Source: Sumerlaeia bacterium
GTDB taxonomy: Bacteria > Sumerlaeota > Sumerlaeia > SLMS01 > JAHLLQ01
Reading direction: 5' to 3'
Assembly: GCA_040219255.1 (NCBI GenBank)
Contig: JAVJSW010000039.1
Location: 96,001 to 160,000, forward strand
DNA: 64,000 nucleotides
The notes under the pieces are model-generated. The model did no database searches and was not told where the DNA came from. It worked only from the letters and a program-made list of their open reading frames with translations. Numbering within the stretch: position 1 is the first letter of the stretch; every line of letters begins with the position of its first letter. The translations under genes and the position numbers were made by a program. Below, piece by piece: positions 39,945 to 53,394 of the stretch.

Positions 39945-41063
39945 CTACCGCGCCTGCGCCGCGACGCGCACGAAATCGGCCGCGTCCAGCACCGTGTCGT
40001 CGTTCGCGTCGAGCCGCGGCTCAATCTCGAACGTCGGCACGCACCCGCACGTCATCACGTCGGCGATGGACCGGCGGATGACGCCGGGGCTGGGGGTGGC
40101 GAAGTTCGTCCAATCGTGTTGAAAAGGCCCGGCGCCTGGCATCGGAGCATCAAGGTCGGATGTGATCAGGACATCCCGCAGGTAAGAATTGTCATCCTCG
40201 ATATCGAAGCGAATCGTTTCCGTTGTGAAGCCATCCACCTTCAGGTGAACCCGCATCGGGCCAAACGGCACATCCAGGCCAAACCGGGCTTCATTCGATC
40301 CGTTCGAGGCCGTGGCATGATCCCCCCAATGCAATTCAAAGTCATTGAAGGGGCCGCCTTCTGATGGGAGGGGATAGGTGTAGGAATCTGAGACCAGGGA
40401 TTGCAGCACATTTCCCAGCAGATACTCCGCCGTGACGGTGACTGTGGTTCCTGGGTTGTCGAAGATTTTCTGGTCGTCCACGATGAGGGAAGGAAGTTGC
40501 CGGCTGTGGGCGACCCAGGCTGTCAGTTGAATTGTAAGCCTTGAAAGCAGTGATGACTCGCCCTTTTGAACTTCGTAATTTCGCCAGGGACTCTCAATCA
40601 ATTCCGTCCCCCGGGTTGGTACAATCCAGTTGATGTCTTGTCCGGCGATGTGGGCCGCAAACCAAGTAAACCCGCTAACGCATTTCCCCTCCCCGGGAAA
40701 GCCGATGCCGGATGCGCGGAACGACAAAGGCGTGCCGGGTTCGACGGGAAGCTCCACGCCGAAGTCGAGCCCGCTCTCCGGGTCTGCGTCCATGGTGGCA
40801 GGTCCTGAACCATTGATCCAGACCAGCAGTTCATCCTCCGCTTGGTTCTCGCGGGGGCGAACCGTTATGCCCAGCCGGCTATCCAAATCGTAGAACGAGC
40901 TGACCCGGAAATACACCAAGCGGAAATCGATATCCCCCGCACCCGCTACCCCCGGCATCACGCAGGCGGCCAGCGCCGGAGCCAGTAACCCGGCCCACCG
41001 GAGACGGGACTTTCGATTCTTTCTTGATCGCGTCTGGAGCGGGAAATTGATTGGCGATGTCAC
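39945..41063 (-). CDS. Hypothetical secreted protein with dockerin-like tail; start uncertain
   Basis: Signal-like RLRWAGLLAPALAA; beta-rich body with atypical codons; C-terminal DANDDTVLDAAD. Confidence 0.65.
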   Translation of the reverse strand: MTSPINFPLQTRSRKNRKSRLRWAGLLAPALAACVMPGVAGAGDIDFRLVYFRVSSFYDLDSRLGITVRPRENQAEDELLVWINGSGPATMDADPESGLDFGVELPVEPGTPLSFRASGIGFPGEGKCVSGFTWFAAHIAGQDINWIVPTRGTELIESPWRNYEVQKGESSLLSRLTIQLTAWVAHSRQLPSLIVDDQKIFDNPGTTVTVTAEYLLGNVLQSLVSDSYTYPLPSEGGPFNDFELHWGDHATASNGSNEARFGLDVPFGPMRVHLKVDGFTTETIRFDIEDDNSYLRDVLITSDLDAPMPGAGPFQHDWTNFATPSPGVIRRSIADVMTCGCVPTFEIEPRLDANDDTVLDAADFVRVAAQAR

Positions 41064-41198
41064 GGCGGCAGGGGAACTCGGCAGCAAAAGTGTGAGCTTC
41101 AAATTTGAGAGCGATGAAAGCCAGGCCTCGAACCGTTGGCAATCGCAGAGTGACAGGGCGCCACCAGATTTCGCCACTTAATGGATGACTTTCATGCG

Positions 41199-41227
41199 TT
41201 GACAGATTCGGCGGCGCGTTATACTTT
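41199..41227 (+). promoter_or_regulatory. Candidate sigma70 promoter
   Basis: TTGACA followed by TATACT (15-bp spacer) or TACTTT (17-bp spacer) upstream of the vWA gene. Confidence 0.45.
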
Positions 41228-41261
41228 GATAATGAAATATGTCCACCGGAGCCCCCTTCCC

Positions 41262-43112
41262 ATGCTTACTCCGCTCTGGCGCGCGGTGCTGCCGCTGCTC
41301 TTTCTCGGAGCCGTGATGGTACCCCGCGCCGCCCACGCCGTCCCCGAAGTCACCTATTATCTGGTGGATCGGTCGCTTTCCATGAACTCCTCGGCGCGCG
41401 ATGGGCGAGCGTTGCTGGATCATGCGCGGTCGCGGGCGTTGACGTCGATTTCCCGCAAGCCCCCGATCCAGGACCGCCGCCGGGTGGTGCTGATTTTCTT
41501 CGACTCGGACCCGACCCGCGCGAACCGCATCGAAATTGCCGAGGCGGATCTGGCGAACGTGGAAAGTCTGCTGGCGACGAACTTCATGGCGCGCGGCAAG
41601 CACACGGTGGTCGGCGCGCGGATCGAGGAAATCCGCCGCGAACTGCTCGCCCTGCGGCCCGCCAAGGCGGAGATTCATCTGTTCAGCGATTTGCAGGAAA
41701 ACTTCCACGGTCTGCCCGCCGAAGCCGCGACGCCGATTTCGCTCCAGGCCGCGCTCGACCGCCTGCTCGGCGACGTGGGCACGGACCGGGGCGCCACGGC
41801 GCTGCTGTTCTATCTCTACGCCCCGCCGGCGATGCAACTCCGGCCCGGGTCGTTCGCTTCCACAGACAGCGATGGCATCGAATACCAGCTCGAATTCCCG
41901 CCGGACCGCGTTCTGTTTCGCGACATCGCGCGGCCATTGGTCGAGGCATTTCTCGACGCTCCGTCGGCAACGCCGGTCTTTCGCATCGCCGAGGAACGCG
42001 TCGGCGCGGCGACGGGAGCCATCGCCGAGGTCCGTCTGTCGGGATTCCTGGAACCGCTGCTGAGCAGCCGGGGCGCCCGCCTGGCCATTCGCGGTCACTT
42101 GGAAATCGAGGACGGTCAGCGATTCGTGCTGCGCCTGAACGATCAGACGCAGCTCGATGTGACGCCCGGGTCTTCGCGCTTCGGGCCGATGACGGTGGTG
42201 GCGGAGTTGCCGCCAGCCGTGCCGTTCGCCGACCTGGAGAGCGGCGCGCGGCGCGCCTTTGTGATTCTCGAACCCATCCTTTCGGCGATTCCCCGTCCGT
42301 TGGAAGCGGAAGATGTGGACGGCGGGGTTCCGCTTCGCGTCGGGGCCCGGTTCGCCTATCGGCCGCGCATGGAGATCGCCGGTCATCGCGGCGACGAAAC
42401 GATCGCCTTCAACGAACTGCTCGATGGGGCCCCTTGCTGGATGGATTTCGAGCTTCTCTGGAACGCTTCGGTGGAGGACGAGATCCTGGCGTGGCGGCTC
42501 GATCCGGTGGTTCCCCAGATCACGCGGTTGCTGGATGGCGCCGGCCGGCGCCAGGGCCAGGCGTTCCTGGTGCCCACGGGCCTCGGACAGCGGCGGGCCA
42601 CCTACACGCTGCACTGGGACAATTTGCGACCCTACCATGGGGCCTTCGTCGTCGAGACGGCGGGCGGCGAGGAACTGATTCGCCAGCCGCTGGCCATCAC
42701 GACCGCCGAGCCGAGGCTGGAACTGGCGGGCGAAGCCATCGCCGCTTCGAACCTGACGCCTGGGGGCAAGGCTCTGGTGCCGTTCCGGCTGACCGGGAAC
42801 AACGCGGTGGAGGGGCTTTTCATGCCTTGGCGCCTCGAACCTCCGCCGCCCTTCCTAATCCGCCTTCTGCGGGGCGACGGCACCGTTTTTCCGCAGCGCA
42901 CGGCCATCGCGATTTCCCAAACGGATAGCGGCGTGCTGGCCTTTGGAATTCAGGGGGCGCGGGATTACGAGGGCGAGTTGGTCTTTACTCTCAATCCTCC
43001 GAACCGGGAACCGGCGGACGTGCGCATTCCGGTGCGGATCGAGGTGCGAGGGGATGCGCCGGCGACGGGAACGCTGACGGCGGAGGCGGGAATTCCAGCC
43101 ATCTCGCCGTGA
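41262..43112 (+). CDS. Secreted vWA-domain protein with C-terminal beta-sandwich regions; start uncertain
   Basis: Signal peptide, MIDAS-like YLVDRSLSM and LFSDLQEN. Confidence 0.7.
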   Translation: MLTPLWRAVLPLLFLGAVMVPRAAHAVPEVTYYLVDRSLSMNSSARDGRALLDHARSRALTSISRKPPIQDRRRVVLIFFDSDPTRANRIEIAEADLANVESLLATNFMARGKHTVVGARIEEIRRELLALRPAKAEIHLFSDLQENFHGLPAEAATPISLQAALDRLLGDVGTDRGATALLFYLYAPPAMQLRPGSFASTDSDGIEYQLEFPPDRVLFRDIARPLVEAFLDAPSATPVFRIAEERVGAATGAIAEVRLSGFLEPLLSSRGARLAIRGHLEIEDGQRFVLRLNDQTQLDVTPGSSRFGPMTVVAELPPAVPFADLESGARRAFVILEPILSAIPRPLEAEDVDGGVPLRVGARFAYRPRMEIAGHRGDETIAFNELLDGAPCWMDFELLWNASVEDEILAWRLDPVVPQITRLLDGAGRRQGQAFLVPTGLGQRRATYTLHWDNLRPYHGAFVVETAGGEELIRQPLAITTAEPRLELAGEAIAASNLTPGGKALVPFRLTGNNAVEGLFMPWRLEPPPPFLIRLLRGDGTVFPQRTAIAISQTDSGVLAFGIQGARDYEGELVFTLNPPNREPADVRIPVRIEVRGDAPATGTLTAEAGIPAISP

Positions 43113-43115
43113 TTC

Positions 43116-43646
43116 TCAAAACGGCCCAACGGATTTCCACGTCGCTCCCTGGGCCGCGGCATGTTCCTTCGCCCAGGTTTCATAGGCGGGGAAGCCGTCG
43201 GGCAGGGGGGTTTTGGGCAGCGTCTTGTGCTCCGGATGGCAGTCCTGACAGCCGAAGCCGGCGGCGTCGTGGAGGGCGAAATAGTATTCGGTGCGGCGCT
43301 TCGCTTCGTCTTCCGGCTGGCCCCGTTTTTTCCATTCCTCGACAAAAAGTTCGACGTAGCGTTCGCGCGGGGCGTAGTTGCTGAACTCGCCGTGGCAGTA
43401 GGAGGAATAGCACCCCATCTGGGTGGTGTAGGGGGCGCCCACGCCGGTCTTCTTGTGGCATTTGTGACAGGGGTAGTCCTCGCCCTGGTGCCAGACATCG
43501 GGGTGCATGTTGAGGTCCATGTCGGCCACATAGAGGCGGGGGTTGTCTTTTCCGGCCTGGAAGAGCCAGCCGGTGACGCCGAGGGACACCATGACGGCGG
43601 CCAGGCTGAGGTAGCGGGGGACGCGCTTTTCGCTCGCGATCGCCAT
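43116..43646 (-). CDS. Membrane-anchored triheme cytochrome c
   Basis: N-terminal TM; CHKCH, CYSSYCH (CX4CH) and CQDCH..H, plus extra His residues. Confidence 0.85.
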   Translation of the reverse strand: MAIASEKRVPRYLSLAAVMVSLGVTGWLFQAGKDNPRLYVADMDLNMHPDVWHQGEDYPCHKCHKKTGVGAPYTTQMGCYSSYCHGEFSNYAPRERYVELFVEEWKKRGQPEDEAKRRTEYYFALHDAAGFGCQDCHPEHKTLPKTPLPDGFPAYETWAKEHAAAQGATWKSVGPF

Positions 43647-43660
43647 GGATGGGGAGCCTT

Positions 43661-45766
43661 TCAGGAACCGAGCTTGATCGAGACGTAGATATGCAGAATG
43701 GCCAGAACGATGAAGAAGATGGCCAGCGGGTAGTGGACGAGGCGCCAGCCCGACAGGAGCTGGGCGGAGAGAAGCGACAGCATGCGGGTGCGTTCGTTGG
43801 TCTCGCCGCTGCCGCGCAGATTGAGTTCGGACACGAGCAGTTGGCGCCGCAGTTGGCGGAAGATGACGAGGCCGACGGCGCCGCTGACGGCGGTGACGAA
43901 GAGCACCGAGCCCATGAGCACGGACAGCCAGGGCGGGGCGGCCTCTCCCCCGGGGGCGAGACCCCGGAGCCAATTGCCGGAGTGTATCAGCAGCATCATG
44001 ACCGCCGGAACGGCTGTGGCGATGTGCGTGTAGAGCCAGGCGCGGAGGCTGCCGATGACGGGAACCTGCTTCTTGCGCGCGAGGGCGACGTAGAAAATGC
44101 AGAACAGGGAGAAGCCGAGCAGGTACGTTCCGGCGTCGCCGATCCAGTCGAGAAAGGCGGAGAGTCCGGCGTTGCGCAGGGAGCTTTCTCCCAGGATGCC
44201 GCCCGCGGTGATGGTGAGCCAGATCGCCGCGACGAGCAGGCCCTGGAGCAGCATGGACTTTTTTTCCTTCTTGCCGAAGCGGCGCAGCGAATCGCCGAGC
44301 AGTTGGTTGGCGCCGGCGTTCGACATGCGCCGCGAAGTGGACGAGTCGGAAAGGACCTTCTGCCAGGCTTCGTAGCAGGCGTCGAAATCCTTGAAGCGTT
44401 TAGCCGGGTCTTTATCCAGCATGCGCTGGATGACTCGGTCGACGGAGCGCGGAAGCTCCTCGTTGAGGGAGGACGGCGCGGGCGCGGGCGCGTTGATATG
44501 CTGGTCGATGATGTCGGCCATTTTCTGTCCGGTGAAAGGCATCTTGCCCGTGAGGGCATAGAAGAGAGTGACGCCGAGGGAATATTGGTCCGTGGCGGGG
44601 GTCAGGGGGAGCATCTGACACTGCTCGGGGGAAGCGAACAGGAGCGTTCCAGCGAAGCCGTAATCCTTTTCCTGGAACGCGGCGGCGGCTTCGGCGAGAC
44701 CGAAGTCGACGATTTTCAGGTCGCCGTTCTCGTCCACCATCATGTTGGCGGGTTTGATGTCGCGGTGGATCAGGCCGTCTTCGGCGGTGCGGCCAAGGGC
44801 GCTGCACGCCTGGCAGGCGATGTTGGCGACCACTTCGATGGGCATACCGCCCCCGCTGTCCTTGGCCAGGTCTTTCAGGGTCTTGCCGTTGATGTGCTCC
44901 ATCGTGAAGAAAGCGTTTCCGTTTTCTTCGAAGATCTCGAAAATCTTCACGATGCGGGCGTGGTTGATGGCTGCCAGGGTTTGGGCTTCTTTGCGGAAGG
45001 CCGCGACGAAGGCTCCGGCGGAGGCGCGGCGGGGCACTTCGAGACGCTTCATCGCCACGTAGCGGTTGAGCGAGACCTGCTTGGCGAGGTAGACGTCGCC
45101 CTGGCCGCCGCTGCCGAGGCGGTCGAGGATGATGTGGCGGGCGAGGACCTGGCCGATCATTTCGCTCTTGAGGCGAGAGGTCGAAAGGCGCAGGCGCTCT
45201 TCGTCGGTGAGCGTGTGTGAGAGGTCGTTGGCCGGATCGAAGACGGTGCTGGGGTTGGAAAGGCTGGGGGCCTGGCTGAGTCCGGCCATTTGGCTGTCGA
45301 CGATGGTGGCGTCGCCAGAGGCCACGGGAGCCATCGGATTGCTGGGGCGGCTCTCGCGAAGGGGAGCGGCCTGGGTGCGGAAAGGGTCCGGTTGGGCCTC
45401 CGCCGCCGCCGCGCCGAAGGCGTCGGCGCGGTCGACTCGGGTGTCTGACGGCACGCGGATCAGGGTGTCGGCGTCGGGCATTTCGGCGGGCAGATGCTCG
45501 CGGAGCTTGGGAGTGGCGAGGATGTCGAGCAGTTCTTGGAGATTGCCCCGTTCCTTCGGGGAGAGGTTGGCGTTCTCCGCCAGAAGATCGGCCAGGGCCA
45601 TGGGCGGGTCGGCCTGGTGCTGCGCCTCGACCAGCAAGTCGTAGTGATGGGGTTGGAAGAGATCGTGACGGACGAGTATTCCAAAGAGGAGAAAATCCTC
45701 CTTGTAAAGGAAATGGCGCCGTTCGTCATCGGCGAGAGTGGGGGCGAGGAGCGTCTTGTCATCCAT
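43661..45766 (-). CDS. Ser/Thr protein kinase fused to a C-terminal cytochrome-b-like membrane domain
   Basis: GSGGQG, VAMK, HRDIKPAN, DFG, SPEQ and DQYSLG; then 5 TM segments with His pairs HIATAVPAVMMLLIH and HYPLAIFFIVLAILH. Confidence 0.88.
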   Translation of the reverse strand: MDDKTLLAPTLADDERRHFLYKEDFLLFGILVRHDLFQPHHYDLLVEAQHQADPPMALADLLAENANLSPKERGNLQELLDILATPKLREHLPAEMPDADTLIRVPSDTRVDRADAFGAAAAEAQPDPFRTQAAPLRESRPSNPMAPVASGDATIVDSQMAGLSQAPSLSNPSTVFDPANDLSHTLTDEERLRLSTSRLKSEMIGQVLARHIILDRLGSGGQGDVYLAKQVSLNRYVAMKRLEVPRRASAGAFVAAFRKEAQTLAAINHARIVKIFEIFEENGNAFFTMEHINGKTLKDLAKDSGGGMPIEVVANIACQACSALGRTAEDGLIHRDIKPANMMVDENGDLKIVDFGLAEAAAAFQEKDYGFAGTLLFASPEQCQMLPLTPATDQYSLGVTLFYALTGKMPFTGQKMADIIDQHINAPAPAPSSLNEELPRSVDRVIQRMLDKDPAKRFKDFDACYEAWQKVLSDSSTSRRMSNAGANQLLGDSLRRFGKKEKKSMLLQGLLVAAIWLTITAGGILGESSLRNAGLSAFLDWIGDAGTYLLGFSLFCIFYVALARKKQVPVIGSLRAWLYTHIATAVPAVMMLLIHSGNWLRGLAPGGEAAPPWLSVLMGSVLFVTAVSGAVGLVIFRQLRRQLLVSELNLRGSGETNERTRMLSLLSAQLLSGWRLVHYPLAIFFIVLAILHIYVSIKLGS

Positions 45767-49625: not shown

Positions 49626-50144
49626 CTACTTCGCCCGCACCCTCCGTCCCGGCTGGGGGGTGGGGGCGGCGAGGTCGGAGCCGCTCCCTTCCAGGGGCAG
49701 TTGCAGGTCCGGGTTGTCCATTGGGACGTCGGCCCCGGTGGTGTAAATGCTGAACGCCTCGGATCGCAGGCCCTGGCAGTCGCGGCAGACACCGTGGTAG
49801 AGGATGGTGTGGCCGTCGATCTGGAAGCCCTCGGGCAGAAGGCCCTTGGTAGGGATGGGGCCGGGAGGCGCGTCGAGTTCATAGACGCGGCCGCAATCGC
49901 GGCAGTGAAAGTGGGGATGGGGATCGGTGACGCCCCACTCGTAGCGGGGCGCCTCACCCGGGAGGAAAACCAGGGAGAGCAGACCCGTCTCGTGCATCGA
50001 CTTCAGCGTGCGGTAGACGGTGGCGATGCCGAGCTTCGGCACCGTCTCCTTGGCGAGGCGATGCACCTCGGCGGGGGAAAGTGGGCGTCTGGCATTCTTG
50101 AGGACCTGCCGGATGGCGGTCCTCTGGTTCGTCTTTCGTTCCAT
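49626..50144 (-). CDS. Fur family transcriptional regulator
   Basis: TNQRTAI, LGIATVYRTL, HPHFHCRDC and GVCRDC motifs. Confidence 0.9.
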   Translation of the reverse strand: MERKTNQRTAIRQVLKNARRPLSPAEVHRLAKETVPKLGIATVYRTLKSMHETGLLSLVFLPGEAPRYEWGVTDPHPHFHCRDCGRVYELDAPPGPIPTKGLLPEGFQIDGHTILYHGVCRDCQGLRSEAFSIYTTGADVPMDNPDLQLPLEGSGSDLAAPTPQPGRRVRAK

Positions 50145-50499
50145 CTCGCTAACCCAATACAAGCACAACTCAAGGCGAAGCGCCCCTTCTTCACCGTTGA
50201 GCCAATCTCAGTTACAGCCCACCCTTTGCGGTTGAGCCATTCGAGTCAAAGGAAAACTCGAATTCGTACCGAACCGGTCGCAGGGGCGCCCCCGCAACGC
50301 GACCGCGGCGGGCGGGAAGAACCCACCTAAGTTGCACCGTATCAAAGGCTTACACAGTGGCTTTGTGATGAGCGGGGCATAAAGGGAATGAAAAACCATC
50401 CGTCGTTTTAAATCATGCAATGAAATCGGAACGATCCTCGAGGAATGAAAACTCGATTCCATTCCGTTTTCAATTTTTCGATCAATTTCGTTATCGCCG

Positions 50500-53394
50500 T
50501 CAGCAATTCATGGCCCGCGCCAGGCGGTCGTAGCGGCGGGTCATCCAGCCTCGCTCTCGCATGCGGAGGAAGACGCGGCGGGCGTCGTCCTCGCAGCGCG
50601 CGCGCAGGTATAGTTCGGCGGCGATGCCGGCGCCGTGGCACTGGTCTTCCCAGTCGCTGGGGCGGAGCATGGCGAGCGCGGTTTCGTAGGCCTGTTGGGC
50701 CGGGCCCGGTTCGCCGCGGCCTTCCAGGGCCATGCCAAGGGCCAGATGGCCTTGGCAGTAGGCGTTTTGAAAGACGCCGTTGCCGGGCATTTTCTCCAGG
50801 GCCTGGTTCGCTCCGGCGATGGCTTCGCGGGCAAGAGAAAGGGCCGAGTCGCTCTTGCCGAGCGCCGCCAGGACTTGGGCGTAGTATCCGCAGTTGAGCG
50901 CGTGGCTGCCGCGTTCGCGGGCGTTGGTGGGATCGGCGGCGGAGAGTTGGGAGCTGAGATCGACCGCTTCGCCGCTGTATTTGGCGGCTTCGCTGGGGCG
51001 CTCCATGTTGTAGAGCATGCGCCCGGTGCAGGAGAGCAGGAAGGTGAGCATGTTGCGATGCATGGCGTTGGCGGGATCGCCCTCGGCGAGTTCGCGCCGC
51101 AGGGCCATGGCGCGGGAGTAGGTGACCAGGGCGTCGTCGAATTCGCCAGCGAATTCCTGGATCAGAGCCAGGTTGGAGACGCTCCAGCAGAGGTCGTCGA
51201 GGCTCTGCATGTTGGCCGGTTCTTCTTCGCGCAACTCTTCGCGGAGCAGAACGCTGCGTTCGGTGACGCGGATCGCTTCGGCCAGTTCGTTGCGGTCGCG
51301 ATAGACATTGCCAAAGGTCGCCAGACACCATCCCAGATTGCCCCGGATAGCCCGGTCGGCGGGATGTTTGGCGGCCAGTTCCTCCAGAATCCGCAGGGCC
51401 CGCAGGTGCATTTCGAGGGCCTGATCGGTCTCCTGCTTGCGCCAATGGGCCACGCCCACTTGGTGGCTGGCGTGGGCGAGGCGGTTGCGGATCGCCACGT
51501 CTCCGGGGTTGTTGCGGGAAAGCCGGATCAGCATGCTCAGCGCGGCCTGGTGCTCCTCGAGAGCCGCGCCGGGGTTGCCCTGAAAGTAGAGCACGGTGCC
51601 GATGCGTTCATGGCTTTCCGCCAGATCGGACCGATAGGCTGGATCTTCGGGGTCGAGTTCGACGAGGTTGCGGGCGTAGCCCTGGAATTCGCGAAAGGCT
51701 TGCAGGGCGGCGGTCAGGTCGCCCTTGGCGCGGAACACATCGCCGAGGTTGCGGCAGGCGACGGCGCGGTTCCGCAGCGCGGCGAGCCGGCTCTCGTGAT
51801 CCGTGGCCAGGTCTTCCTCGTCCGGAAAGGCGTCGAAATAGTCGAGCGCTTCGTTGCCGACGCGCGCCAGGAGATCGAGCCGGTTGACCTGCTTGAGGCC
51901 CTCGTGCAGGTCCTGGAGAACGAAAGCGAGGAGGCGTTCGGCGCGTTCGCGGGCTTTGCGGGCGCGGTTGAAGGCCGCCTCCAGGCGTTCGTCGGCGCGG
52001 CGCTGCTCTTCTTCGCGGCGGGCGATTTCCGCCAGCAAATCCTCGCGCGTCGGGCACGGGCTGAGGCGCTCGGCCTGAAGACGGGCGAGCCTCAGATCGC
52101 GGCTTTGGAGCGCGACGCGGCTGTAGCGCGCGAGCAGGTCCTGGCGCAGTTGGCCCGCTTCCGTGTTGCCGGGCCAGAGGGTGCGGGCGCGGCTGAGTTT
52201 TTCCAGGGCCTCGGCCAGTTCGATGTACTCGATGGCGCCCTTGGCCAGGCTCTCCGCCACTTCTCCGATGAGAACTTCCGCTTCCCTGCGGCGCGACGCA
52301 CCGGTGAGGAAACCGCGCAGTTCGTCGACCACTTCCTCGGCGGAGCGGGGGCGATCCAAGGGAGAGAGGGCGAGGCAGCGCATCGCCAGGATGTCGAGTT
52401 CCAAGGGCACCTCCCGGTCTTCGGGAGCGGCCTCGCGGGGGGGCTGGACTTTGCCCTCGGCGGCCAGGAAGAACGCCGCTTTGGGCGAGTCGGCCTCGTG
52501 CGGCCGGCGACCCGTCAGGAGTTCGTACAGCACGGCGCCGAGCAGATAGACGTCGGTCCAGGGCCCGATGTTCGAGACCGTGTCCTCGGTTTGCTCCGGC
52601 GCCATATAGGCCACGGTTCCGGCCGGGTTGGCGGCGGATTCGCTCATGGCGCCCAACATGGGCACGATCAGGCTATCGCTCTCGCGGCGGTTGCGTTCCG
52701 GGTCGTAGACCAGCGCGATACCCCAGTCCATCAGGAGCACCTCGCCGAATTCGCCGACCATGACCTGACTCGGCTTGAGGTCGCGATGGACGATGCCGCG
52801 GCTGTGGGCGAAGGCCACCGCCTGGCCGACGTCGATCAGGATGGTCAGATGCTTGGCGAGGAATTCCTCGACGCCGAGGGTGGGCCAGTCCTGGCGCAGA
52901 AGCTGATACCAGGGTTTGCCACCGACGCGCTTCATGGCGATCAGCAGATTGCCCTCTTCGTCGAGCCCTAAGTCATGCACCGGCAGGACGTTGGGATGCT
53001 CCAGGCTGGCGGCGAGAAAGGCTTCGTGGCGGAAGTCGTGCTCGAGCTGGCGCAGGCGGCGCGGATTGTCGCTGCAACTTTCCCGCAGATCCCATCGCAG
53101 GCGCTTGACCGCGATGGTGCGGCCCAGGCTTTCCTGCCGCGCTTCCCAGACTTCGCCGACACCGCCCTGGGCGATCAGGTTGAGCAGCGTGTAGTCCGGG
53201 TTCATTTCCGGCCGGTATTCCGGATCGGCGGTTCGCGCGTCTTCCTGGCGAACCGGTGCTGTGTTGACGACGCGGCGGCGTGTCGCCTCAAAGGAATCGT
53301 AATCGCTGGGCAGGGCGGAGAGCGAATCGAGGCTGGCGACTTGAGTGGTGAACGTCTCGTAGAGGGTCGAGGGGAGGTTGAGAGGAAGCTTCAC
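50500..53394 (-). CDS. Ser/Thr protein kinase with C-terminal TPR repeats
   Basis: QGGVG, IAVK, HRDLKPSQ, DWG and YMAPEQ; multiple TPR-like helical repeats. Confidence 0.9.
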   Translation of the reverse strand: MKLPLNLPSTLYETFTTQVASLDSLSALPSDYDSFEATRRRVVNTAPVRQEDARTADPEYRPEMNPDYTLLNLIAQGGVGEVWEARQESLGRTIAVKRLRWDLRESCSDNPRRLRQLEHDFRHEAFLAASLEHPNVLPVHDLGLDEEGNLLIAMKRVGGKPWYQLLRQDWPTLGVEEFLAKHLTILIDVGQAVAFAHSRGIVHRDLKPSQVMVGEFGEVLLMDWGIALVYDPERNRRESDSLIVPMLGAMSESAANPAGTVAYMAPEQTEDTVSNIGPWTDVYLLGAVLYELLTGRRPHEADSPKAAFFLAAEGKVQPPREAAPEDREVPLELDILAMRCLALSPLDRPRSAEEVVDELRGFLTGASRRREAEVLIGEVAESLAKGAIEYIELAEALEKLSRARTLWPGNTEAGQLRQDLLARYSRVALQSRDLRLARLQAERLSPCPTREDLLAEIARREEEQRRADERLEAAFNRARKARERAERLLAFVLQDLHEGLKQVNRLDLLARVGNEALDYFDAFPDEEDLATDHESRLAALRNRAVACRNLGDVFRAKGDLTAALQAFREFQGYARNLVELDPEDPAYRSDLAESHERIGTVLYFQGNPGAALEEHQAALSMLIRLSRNNPGDVAIRNRLAHASHQVGVAHWRKQETDQALEMHLRALRILEELAAKHPADRAIRGNLGWCLATFGNVYRDRNELAEAIRVTERSVLLREELREEEPANMQSLDDLCWSVSNLALIQEFAGEFDDALVTYSRAMALRRELAEGDPANAMHRNMLTFLLSCTGRMLYNMERPSEAAKYSGEAVDLSSQLSAADPTNARERGSHALNCGYYAQVLAALGKSDSALSLAREAIAGANQALEKMPGNGVFQNAYCQGHLALGMALEGRGEPGPAQQAYETALAMLRPSDWEDQCHGAGIAAELYLRARCEDDARRVFLRMRERGWMTRRYDRLARAMNC

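Follow-up and report, generated by a model that had tools for sequence, protein, structure and literature searches.

The DNA analysed here, referred to as the window, is a stretch of 64,000 nucleotides from a Sumerlaeia bacterium (assembly GCA_040219255.1, contig JAVJSW010000039.1, positions 96,001 to 160,000). On its reverse strand lies a pair of genes, the first encoding a Hanks-type serine/threonine kinase that continues into a polytopic transmembrane (TM) domain, and the second encoding a membrane-anchored multihaem cytochrome c. The kinase gene ends with TGA, which is followed by 14 nucleotides, AAGGCTCCCCATCC, and by the ATG of the 176-amino-acid open reading frame (ORF) of the cytochrome. 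An earlier note, made from the letters of the sequence, had described a complete kinase, five TM helices of which two carry histidine pairs, and a membrane-anchored cytochrome that follows on the same strand after a 14-bp gap; the gap, the strand and the anchor are as described, by direct reading of the sequence and by hydropathy. On balance, we consider it somewhat probable that the gene pair forms a transmembrane redox-sensing module, a reading in which we infer haem binding, docking of the cytochrome, the direction of electron flow and the coupling to the kinase.

The catalytic part of the kinase is matched by the Pfam model Pkinase (PF00069) over residues 215-461, with 161.3 bits against a cut-off of 31.7 and an E-value of 4e-47. 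The ORF contains the motifs LGSGGQGDV, YVAMK, IHRDIKPANMM and VDFG, so that every kinase motif quoted in the earlier note is present. In an alignment of 31 fused sequences, residues G218, G220, G223, K240, E260, H334, D336, K338, N341, D354-F355-G356, E381, D393 and R457 are invariant in all 31, and R335 of the HRD motif is kept in at least 90% of them. Judged by its sequence, the Hanks kinase is catalytically complete, as had been claimed. The best NCBIfam match, PknB_PASTA_kin (NF033483), reached 242.1 bits against a cut-off of 450 and covered only kinase residues 209-482, and Pfam found no PASTA repeats in the kinase protein. A conserved helical domain, with the sequence EDYLLFGLLVRHGL...AQ..., occupies residues ~17-97 at the N-terminus. 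It has no Pfam match, and the Protein Atlas gave weak leads only, to MshEN/PatA_N-like domains in N-terminal position in kinases of Planctomycetota. It is conceivable that this domain receives a second input or binds a partner.

The TM domain can be described as a bundle of five helices. Hydropathy gives five hydrophobic segments, 506-526, 544-562, 575-596, 612-636 and 672-696, and the model obtained with AlphaFold 2 (AF2), with a pLDDT of 86.3 and a pTM of 0.80, has five long helices, in agreement with the earlier note. The chain ends 5-9 residues past TM5. Lysine and arginine residues number 6, 3 and 6 in the predicted cytoplasmic loops and 1, 1 and 1 in the periplasmic loops; the predicted topology is N-in/C-out, with the kinase in the cytoplasm and the C-terminus outside. 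TM3 carries the histidine pair H581/H595 and TM5 the pair H678/H692, with a spacing of exactly 14 in each, as had been noticed earlier, and residues 490-701 contain no other histidine. Because the predicted topology is N-in/C-out, one histidine of each pair on TM3 and TM5 would lie near each leaflet. The accessible part of a survey of ferric-reductase-domain (FRD) proteins (PMC3591440) gives a rule for that superfamily, namely four histidines on TM3 and TM5, with His101/115 and His209/222 in NOX2 as the example; there, the first histidine of each pair ligates the inner haem and the second one the outer haem.

The four histidines, on whose conservation the earlier reading depended, are invariant in all 31 fused sequences, that of the window included. 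They are likewise invariant in an alignment of 36 sequences, 21 of which are stand-alone proteins at ~23% identity; only nine columns are invariant there, and the TM histidines account for four of them. A further set (14/14), which includes five divergent fusions from Sumerlaeota, keeps them as well. A family alignment of the TM domain was compared by hhalign with one built from 15 bona fide PF01794 domains of Sumerlaeota, and this gave a probability of 93.7% and an E-value of 1.9e-7, a value that refers to one pairwise comparison. With greedier extension, the alignment spanned 171 columns and paired both histidines of TM3, the invariant tryptophan and both histidines of TM5, with one gap on TM5 that reflects a spacing of 14 versus 13. 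Comparison with 12 canonical Ni_hydr_CYTB proteins gave 4.2%, with the last helix alone aligned, and a cytochrome b of the Ni-hydrogenase or formate-dehydrogenase type was ruled out on this value. Of the kinship with cytochrome b and ferric reductases proposed in the earlier note, the ferric-reductase part stands, on the 93.7% and the four aligned histidines; the nearest family is the FRD superfamily and not a cytochrome b of the Ni-hydrogenase or bc type. Among 38 relatives, sub-threshold Pfam matches were to Ni_hydr_CYTB in nine, to DUF4405 in seven and to PF01794 in five (16.8-20.7 bits versus 28). NCBIfam holds no family for the TM domain of the window or for ten stand-alone relatives. By its sequence, we file the TM domain near the FRD superfamily, as a divergent relative with five helices that stands outside every curated family.

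A search with residues 495-701 returned 30 other proteins, all with kinase domains, at 50-60% identity in the TM domain and 46-56% overall. The organism labels among these 30 were Candidatus Sumerlaeota/Sumerlaeia in five cases and 'bacterium' in one, and the database names of the fused proteins are 'serine/threonine protein kinase' only. An exhaustive HMMER search of 1.84 billion representatives gave 49 proteins at E<=0.001, which included nine kinase-domain proteins of greater divergence, 524-987 amino acids long, as well as stand-alone membrane proteins of ~190 amino acids. Scanning species-representative genomes gave 11 loci, and the metagenome-assembled genomes with a phylum label were Sumerlaeota. 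Within this phylum (Candidatus Sumerlaeota), the TM domain occurs in 18 of 75 genomes, 12 of them with close and six with more distant versions, so the fusion is not restricted to one assembly, a point on which the earlier note had made its reading depend. In a quick tree, a branch with SH-aLRT support of 95 parts 19 stand-alone proteins from 26 fused ones and two likely fragments, a topology compatible with a single fusion event. The two proteins, P0046 and P0048, were considered as independent losses of the kinase and this was ruled out; P0048 begins with the tail of a kinase domain, P0046 lacks TM1, and both look like fragments.

The genome survey that the earlier note had proposed bore out the pairing of kinase and multihaem cytochrome. 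A gene for a multihaem cytochrome c lies directly downstream of the kinase in all 18 genomes (12 close, five divergent and one at a contig edge). In the 12 close loci, this gene encodes two CXXCH motifs and one CX4CH motif and follows the kinase after a spacer of 3-73 nucleotides. In the five divergent loci and the one at the contig edge, the cytochrome has four to five haems and the gap is 0-3 nucleotides. The partner cytochrome of four divergent Sumerlaeota loci (L013:3425-4711, L014:3538-4734, L017:4029-5219 and L101:621-1883) has five haem motifs, followed by a linker rich in proline and threonine and by a conserved C-terminal domain of ~110 amino acids, which by eye seems to resemble a thioredoxin-like fold and has no CXXC.

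The cytochrome of the window has three haem attachment sites, CXXCH at C60-H64, CX4CH at C79YSSYC84H85 and CXXCH at C133-H137. The number given in the earlier note is therefore correct, but the motifs are not three canonical CXXCH, one site being CX4CH in all 12 orthologues. The 12 cytochromes of the close loci are 26-33% identical to that of the window, and the three attachment motifs, M43, H48, H126 and E139-H140 are invariant in all of them. Besides those of the motifs, there are three invariant histidines, equal to the number of haem motifs, and H48, H126 and H140 could be the distal haem ligands. Invariance extends to E6, S14 and A17 of the tail and anchor at the N-terminus, from which we argue that the anchor helix has been retained for packing against a partner. 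In the AF2 model, the anchor helix 11-34 has a pLDDT of 92-93. Pfam matches to the cytochrome stay below threshold, with 22.5 bits versus 25 for Cytochrom_c3_2, 20.0 versus 22.9 for Cytochrom_CIII, and 13.4 versus 24.8 for a third model of the class III/c7 type (among PF02085, PF14537 and PF14522). The family profile matched chains of the c3/c7 type in the Protein Data Bank (PDB) at E-values from 1.4e-4 to 1e-2, including 2A3M (1.4e-4), the c7-like 8K9E (9e-4) and 6F0K (2.5e-3), and cytochromes c3 were numerous among the matches. Proteins for the assembly of cytochrome c (PF01578) are encoded in the genome.

The stand-alone relatives stand in a different gene context. A metagenome scan with one of them, P0050, as the query gave 39 loci, of which 15 short or partial ones were set aside by eye before cytochromes were counted. 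In all 24 loci that were left, a gene for a cytochrome c with 8-14 haems lies directly downstream on the same strand. A BLAST comparison over all 39 loci placed an FNR-like protein of ~430 amino acids directly upstream of the four-His gene in 24; its Pfam matches are NAD_binding_1 (E 1.9e-20) and Fer2 (E 2.7e-11), with the ferric-reductase NAD-binding model just under its cut-off. Loci L044-L068 (for example L057:2543-5247) have the order FNR-like reductase of ~430 amino acids, five-TM four-His protein of ~192 amino acids, octahaem cytochrome c. The ~192-amino-acid protein belongs to no Pfam or NCBIfam family. This three-gene cassette looks, by analogy, like a split electron exporter of the NOX/FRE kind that is possibly independent of quinone. 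We argue from the neighbouring reductase and multihaem cytochrome that the domain carries electrons across the membrane. The kinase in the fusion has the position of the reductase, N-terminal to the haem domain and on its cytoplasmic side, and with this gene context the kinase, TM domain and cytochrome together look like an electron wire in which a kinase replaces the reductase.

A second subgroup of stand-alone loci, L033-L042 (for example L041:3523-6632), has the four-His protein between a PepSY protein and a cytochrome c with 10-14 haems, and a canonical cytochrome b561 (PF01292, E 2e-28) comes after the cytochrome c gene. L041 is flanked by a response regulator and by a GGDEF protein with a Tll0287-like domain.

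The positions of the parts of the gene pair in the window are collected in Table 1.

Table 1 Features of the kinase and cytochrome genes, with positions in the window.
Feature	Position	Strand	Description	Basis
Kinase gene, whole	43661..45766	(-)	701 aa, stop codon included	ORF list and translation
N-terminal helical domain	45476..45718	(-)	residues ~17-97, conserved	conserved block in 31-sequence alignment A1
Low-complexity linker			residues ~100-205, variable, after the N-terminal helical domain of the kinase	
Hanks-type kinase catalytic domain	44321..45142	(-)	residues 209-482, predicted cytoplasmic	Pfam and NCBIfam
Juxtamembrane helix and 5-TM ferric-reductase-like domain	43664..44299	(-)	residues 490-701, two b haems predicted	
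TM3	43979..44044	(-)	residues 575-596; H581 on the cytoplasmic side, H595 on the periplasmic side, then invariant S596-G597	
TM5	43679..43753	(-)	residues 672-696; invariant W674-R675, H678 on the cytoplasmic side, H692 on the periplasmic side	
Intergenic spacer	43647..43660	(-)	14 nt, kinase stop to cytochrome start	sequence read
Membrane-anchored trihaem cytochrome c	43116..43646	(-)	176 aa, stop codon included	translation
N-terminal TM anchor of the cytochrome	43545..43616	(-)	residues ~11-34; invariant S14 and A17, preceded by invariant E6	
Periplasmic haem-c domain of the cytochrome	43227..43520	(-)		12/12 invariant columns

The gene pair is flanked by one convergent and one divergent gene. 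The gene for a 643-amino-acid protein, 41181-43112 (+), which has a weak match to VWA_2 (E 0.0046), converges on the cytochrome gene, and an ORF of 410 amino acids without a Pfam family lies at 39945-41177 (-). None of the eight other neighbour genes in the window recurs in the 16 loci compared; a conserved operon partner (phosphatase, FHA protein or reductase, for example) was looked for and ruled out on this count. Since no neighbour recurs and the flanking genes are convergent and divergent, the conserved unit consists of two genes. Five kilobases from the pair lies a second Hanks kinase, of 964 amino acids with a long TPR region, 50500-53394 (-), and a Fur-family regulator, 49626-50168 (-), is located between the two. 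Neither the TPR kinase nor the Fur-family gene is kept beside the kinase-cytochrome pair in other genomes (16 loci).

A mechanism can be proposed from these data. An inner b haem would be held by H581 and H678 and an outer b haem by H595 and H692, the two being stacked across the membrane. The anchored trihaem cytochrome c, which would be co-transcribed with the kinase, would dock on the periplasmic face of the TM domain; its three c haems, together with the two b haems, would then make up a wire for electrons that runs from the periplasm to the cytoplasmic side of the membrane. In the stand-alone relatives, the FNR-like NAD(P)H reductase of the cytoplasm would feed the inner end of the wire. 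With the fusion, the Hanks kinase would take the position of the reductase and the wire would be a dead end: it would terminate at the inner haem, since a kinase lacks a redox cofactor, and the haems would come to equilibrium with electron carriers of the periplasm or of respiration. A change in the redox state of the inner haem may move the collar formed by R564 and W674-R675, the cytoplasmic loop or helix between TM4 and TM5 and the juxtamembrane helix, with its elements L489-L490-G491 and L494; this movement would alter the activity of the kinase and hence Ser/Thr phosphorylation. We regard it as possible, though a little short of probable, that the protein is a receptor kinase which reads electrons rather than a bound ligand through a wire of five haems, and that it evolved by exchange of an NAD(P)H reductase for a kinase in a split NOX-like exporter. 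Sumerlaeota are facultative anaerobes of habitats in which oxygen fluctuates, according to the accessible part of a study of the phylum (PMC8092238), and such habitats would give a redox sensor a plausible use.

Several results weigh against the redox-sensing module. No curated model of Pfam or NCBIfam matches the TM domain above threshold. Ni_hydr_CYTB (PF01292) reached 13.5 bits versus a cut-off of 30.1 on residues 539-696 of the window kinase (E 0.063), and neither PF01794 nor PF14358 gave a match to this protein at E<=1. A scan of this genome with PF01794 gave no match at E<=0.01, and a scan of the phylum with PF14358 matched 48 of 75 genomes, with the kinase locus not among the matches. 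The domain has five helices, versus six in FRD proteins, and the hhalign E-value comes from a single comparison. A Foldseek search of the TM-domain model against the PDB gave no match at E<=0.001, the best value being 0.32; NOX5 and DUOX1 appeared as non-significant matches. With VIA-align, the top structure was E. coli CybB (5OC0), with a root mean square deviation of 3.9 Å over 137 aligned residues and a Z-score of 10.0, which is lower than the value of ~13 that helical bundles can attain by arrangement alone. Next came a designed two-haem protein (9.9), the Hyd-1 cytochrome b (4GD3; 8.3), b6 (8.2) and Dcytb (7.8), and SpNOX (8QQ7) aligned over 121 residues at 17% identity with a Z-score of 7.4, all of them under the caution level for helical bundles. 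The confidence of the AF2 model and the presence of several di-haem bundles at the head of this list count in favour of the module. A search of PDB sequences with the TM-domain profile returned only a chance match to the TM helix of EGFR (E 0.31), and in the Protein Atlas the domain fell with clusters named 'hypothetical protein' only (195-218 amino acids, scores 0.88-0.90). Among sequencing runs, one of DNA and none of RNA is listed as containing this stretch of DNA.

The periplasmic side adds to these points. The AF2 model of the cytochrome is poor as a whole (pLDDT 65.7, pTM 0.46). Co-folding with the cytochrome and haems, which the earlier note had put forward as a check, was carried out with the TM domain, four haems and the cytochrome alongside three controls, and gave a score of 0.46 (runs 0.46, 0.41 and 0.49) versus 0.00 for the best of the three controls, with contact agreement of at least 62% between runs and a partner pLDDT of at least 53. 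Of 80 solved complexes, 58 reached the mark used for this score, which was calibrated without ligands and without the alignments used here, and so did two of 110 mismatched pairs; in the range up to 0.60, only seven of the 80 solved complexes reached it, and both passing mismatches lie there. Docking of the cytochrome on the TM domain is thus weakly supported by these models, and we count this weakness on the same side.

Three other explanations were weighed. The pair may be in the first place an electron-transfer enzyme, a small quinol:cytochrome c or cytoplasm-to-periplasm conduit, in which the kinase regulates or reports in response to some other input and either gates the flow by phosphorylation or is merely localised there. 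The stand-alone relatives, with their reductase, four-His TM protein and octahaem cytochrome c, look like working conduits, the separate conserved N-terminal domain could be the real input, and MsrQ-type FRD proteins can carry quinone, as stated in the accessible part of PMC12525009. However, the only evident cytoplasmic electron donor has been replaced by the kinase, no reductase or terminal enzyme is conserved beside the pair, a three-haem cytochrome without a catalytic partner would be a poor metabolic end-point, and a tight link to the membrane domain by way of a conserved juxtamembrane helix is a typical trait of receptor kinases; we consider a conduit of this kind unlikely. It is more improbable still that the module is a haem-based sensor of gas or small ligands, in which a b or c haem binds O2, NO, CO or sulfide as in FixL or DosS. 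The invariance of the four TM histidines implies that both b haems are six-coordinate with bis-His ligation, which leaves no site open, there are exactly three further invariant histidines for the three c haems, and the relatives stand in a context of electron transfer, not of gas sensing. To be set against this are an invariant Met43 near His48 in the cytochrome, which is a possible labile ligand, the oxygen fluctuations under which the organisms live (PMC8092238, accessible part), and the fact that haem-based sensors are well known among histidine kinases (PMC12189002, likewise in its accessible part).

The remaining explanation dispenses with haem in the membrane. The four histidines would bind a metal or be structural, the TM domain would do no more than anchor the protein or let it dimerise, and the cytochrome beside it would have an unrelated function. 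That all curated models of haem proteins stay under threshold, that Foldseek has no significant match and that helical bundles easily resemble each other would fit such an explanation. Yet the profile-profile alignment with FRD pairs the four histidines and the tryptophan, and an arrangement on two parallel helices, with histidines 14 residues apart and one per leaflet, is the di-haem rule (PMC3591440, in the part accessible). The linkage to multihaem cytochromes is strict, both in the 18 genomes with the fusion and in the 24 stand-alone loci counted, and nine invariant positions at ~23% identity would be unexpected for a mere anchor. We regard a TM domain without haem as very improbable, and the redox-sensing module is retained as the favoured reading.

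The earlier note knew of no characterised system with this architecture, and our search of the literature on kinases, the phylum, DUF4405 and NOX-like systems likewise turned up no account of a fusion between a Hanks kinase and a domain of the FRD-like or cytochrome b kind, with the limit that supplementary tables of PMC8092238 and of the preprint 10.1101/2024.03.13.584918 could list members. The word 'kinase' is absent from the accessible part of the FRD survey (PMC3591440), and a 2025 review of the regulation of bacterial phosphorelays, in the part accessible, treats haem only for the PAS domains of histidine kinases (PMC12189002). We rate the protein as a combination of known kinds, a receptor Hanks kinase and a di-haem domain of the FRD type. 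If the redox-sensing reading is true, this combination would be a new type of input for Hanks kinases, with direct electronic coupling across the membrane and a multihaem cytochrome as the antenna, and it would represent a new principle of bacterial transmembrane signalling and a template for the bioelectronic control of phosphorylation. It would also provide a handle on redox tracking in an uncultured, facultatively anaerobic phylum, and the FRD fold would serve signalling besides catalysis. The analysis has further brought to light an uncharacterised family of four-His membrane proteins of ~190 amino acids, which look like electron exporters, possibly independent of quinone.

Bacterial Hanks kinases are known to receive their signals via PASTA, TPR, propeller and comparable ligand-binding domains. 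PknB/Stk1 kinases share with the window kinase a cytoplasmic Hanks domain, a juxtamembrane segment and then a membrane or extracytoplasmic sensor; they have one TM helix and an extracellular ligand-binding domain, whereas here the sensor is polytopic, predicted to bind a cofactor and devoid of PASTA repeats. Haem-based sensor kinases are known in the form of soluble PAS or GAF domains on the histidine kinases FixL and DosS/DosT, and of HRI, a soluble eIF2alpha kinase, all of which sense the binding of gas or haem. If the proposed reading is true, these kinases and that of the window would have in common that their activity follows the state of a haem that they bind. None of the haem-based sensor kinases named here is known to have a membrane-spanning di-haem wire that is fed by a partner cytochrome. 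As for the cytochrome, proteins of class III (c3/c7), those of the membrane-anchored NapC/NrfH-like type and the haem subunits of ACIII share bis-His haems, a ligation that is predicted here, and a mixture of CXXCH and CX4CH motifs. The window protein differs from class III and NapC/NrfH-like cytochromes in its three haems on an N-terminal anchor with invariant residues and in the pairing with a kinase gene.

Cytochromes of the b561/Ni_hydr_CYTB kind, represented by CybB (5OC0) and Hyd-1 (4GD3), are di-haem TM bundles of four helices, and both fall below the caution level of VIA-align. Helices 1, 2 and 4 supply their histidine ligands, not a single pair of helices. DUF4405 proteins, PepSY-like TM proteins and FezC are, in the accessible part of the preprint that describes them (bioRxiv 10.1101/2024.03.13.584918), small bacterial TM proteins with four central histidines that are predicted to carry electrons across the membrane, and the four-His TM proteins of the DUF4405 and FezC kinds are shown there to bind haem b. 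They are linked to ApbE flavinylation or ferrosomes, and not to kinases or multihaem cytochromes c, and the DUF4405 genes of the phylum are found at loci other than the kinase locus. The genome of the window itself has a bona fide DUF4405 protein (57.3 bits, in a 167-amino-acid frame) at C31:79248-79436 (L029/L094), unrelated to the kinase locus. The FRD superfamily (PF01794), with NOX, FRE, MsrQ/YedZ, STEAP and SpNOX, has the same four histidines on TM3 and TM5, 13-14 residues apart and in an N-in orientation, and the same invariant tryptophan four residues ahead of the first histidine of TM5. The FNR-like NAD-binding reductase that is the partner in NOX and FRE is found here beside the stand-alone relatives. 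The spacing of the TM5 histidines is 13 in NOX2 and in the FRD proteins of the phylum itself, whereas it is 14 in the domain described here. The FRD proteins have a C-terminal FAD/NADPH dehydrogenase and face O2, Fe(III) or MsrP on the outside, while in the fusion the cytoplasmic partner is an N-terminally fused protein kinase and the outside partner a dedicated multihaem cytochrome c.

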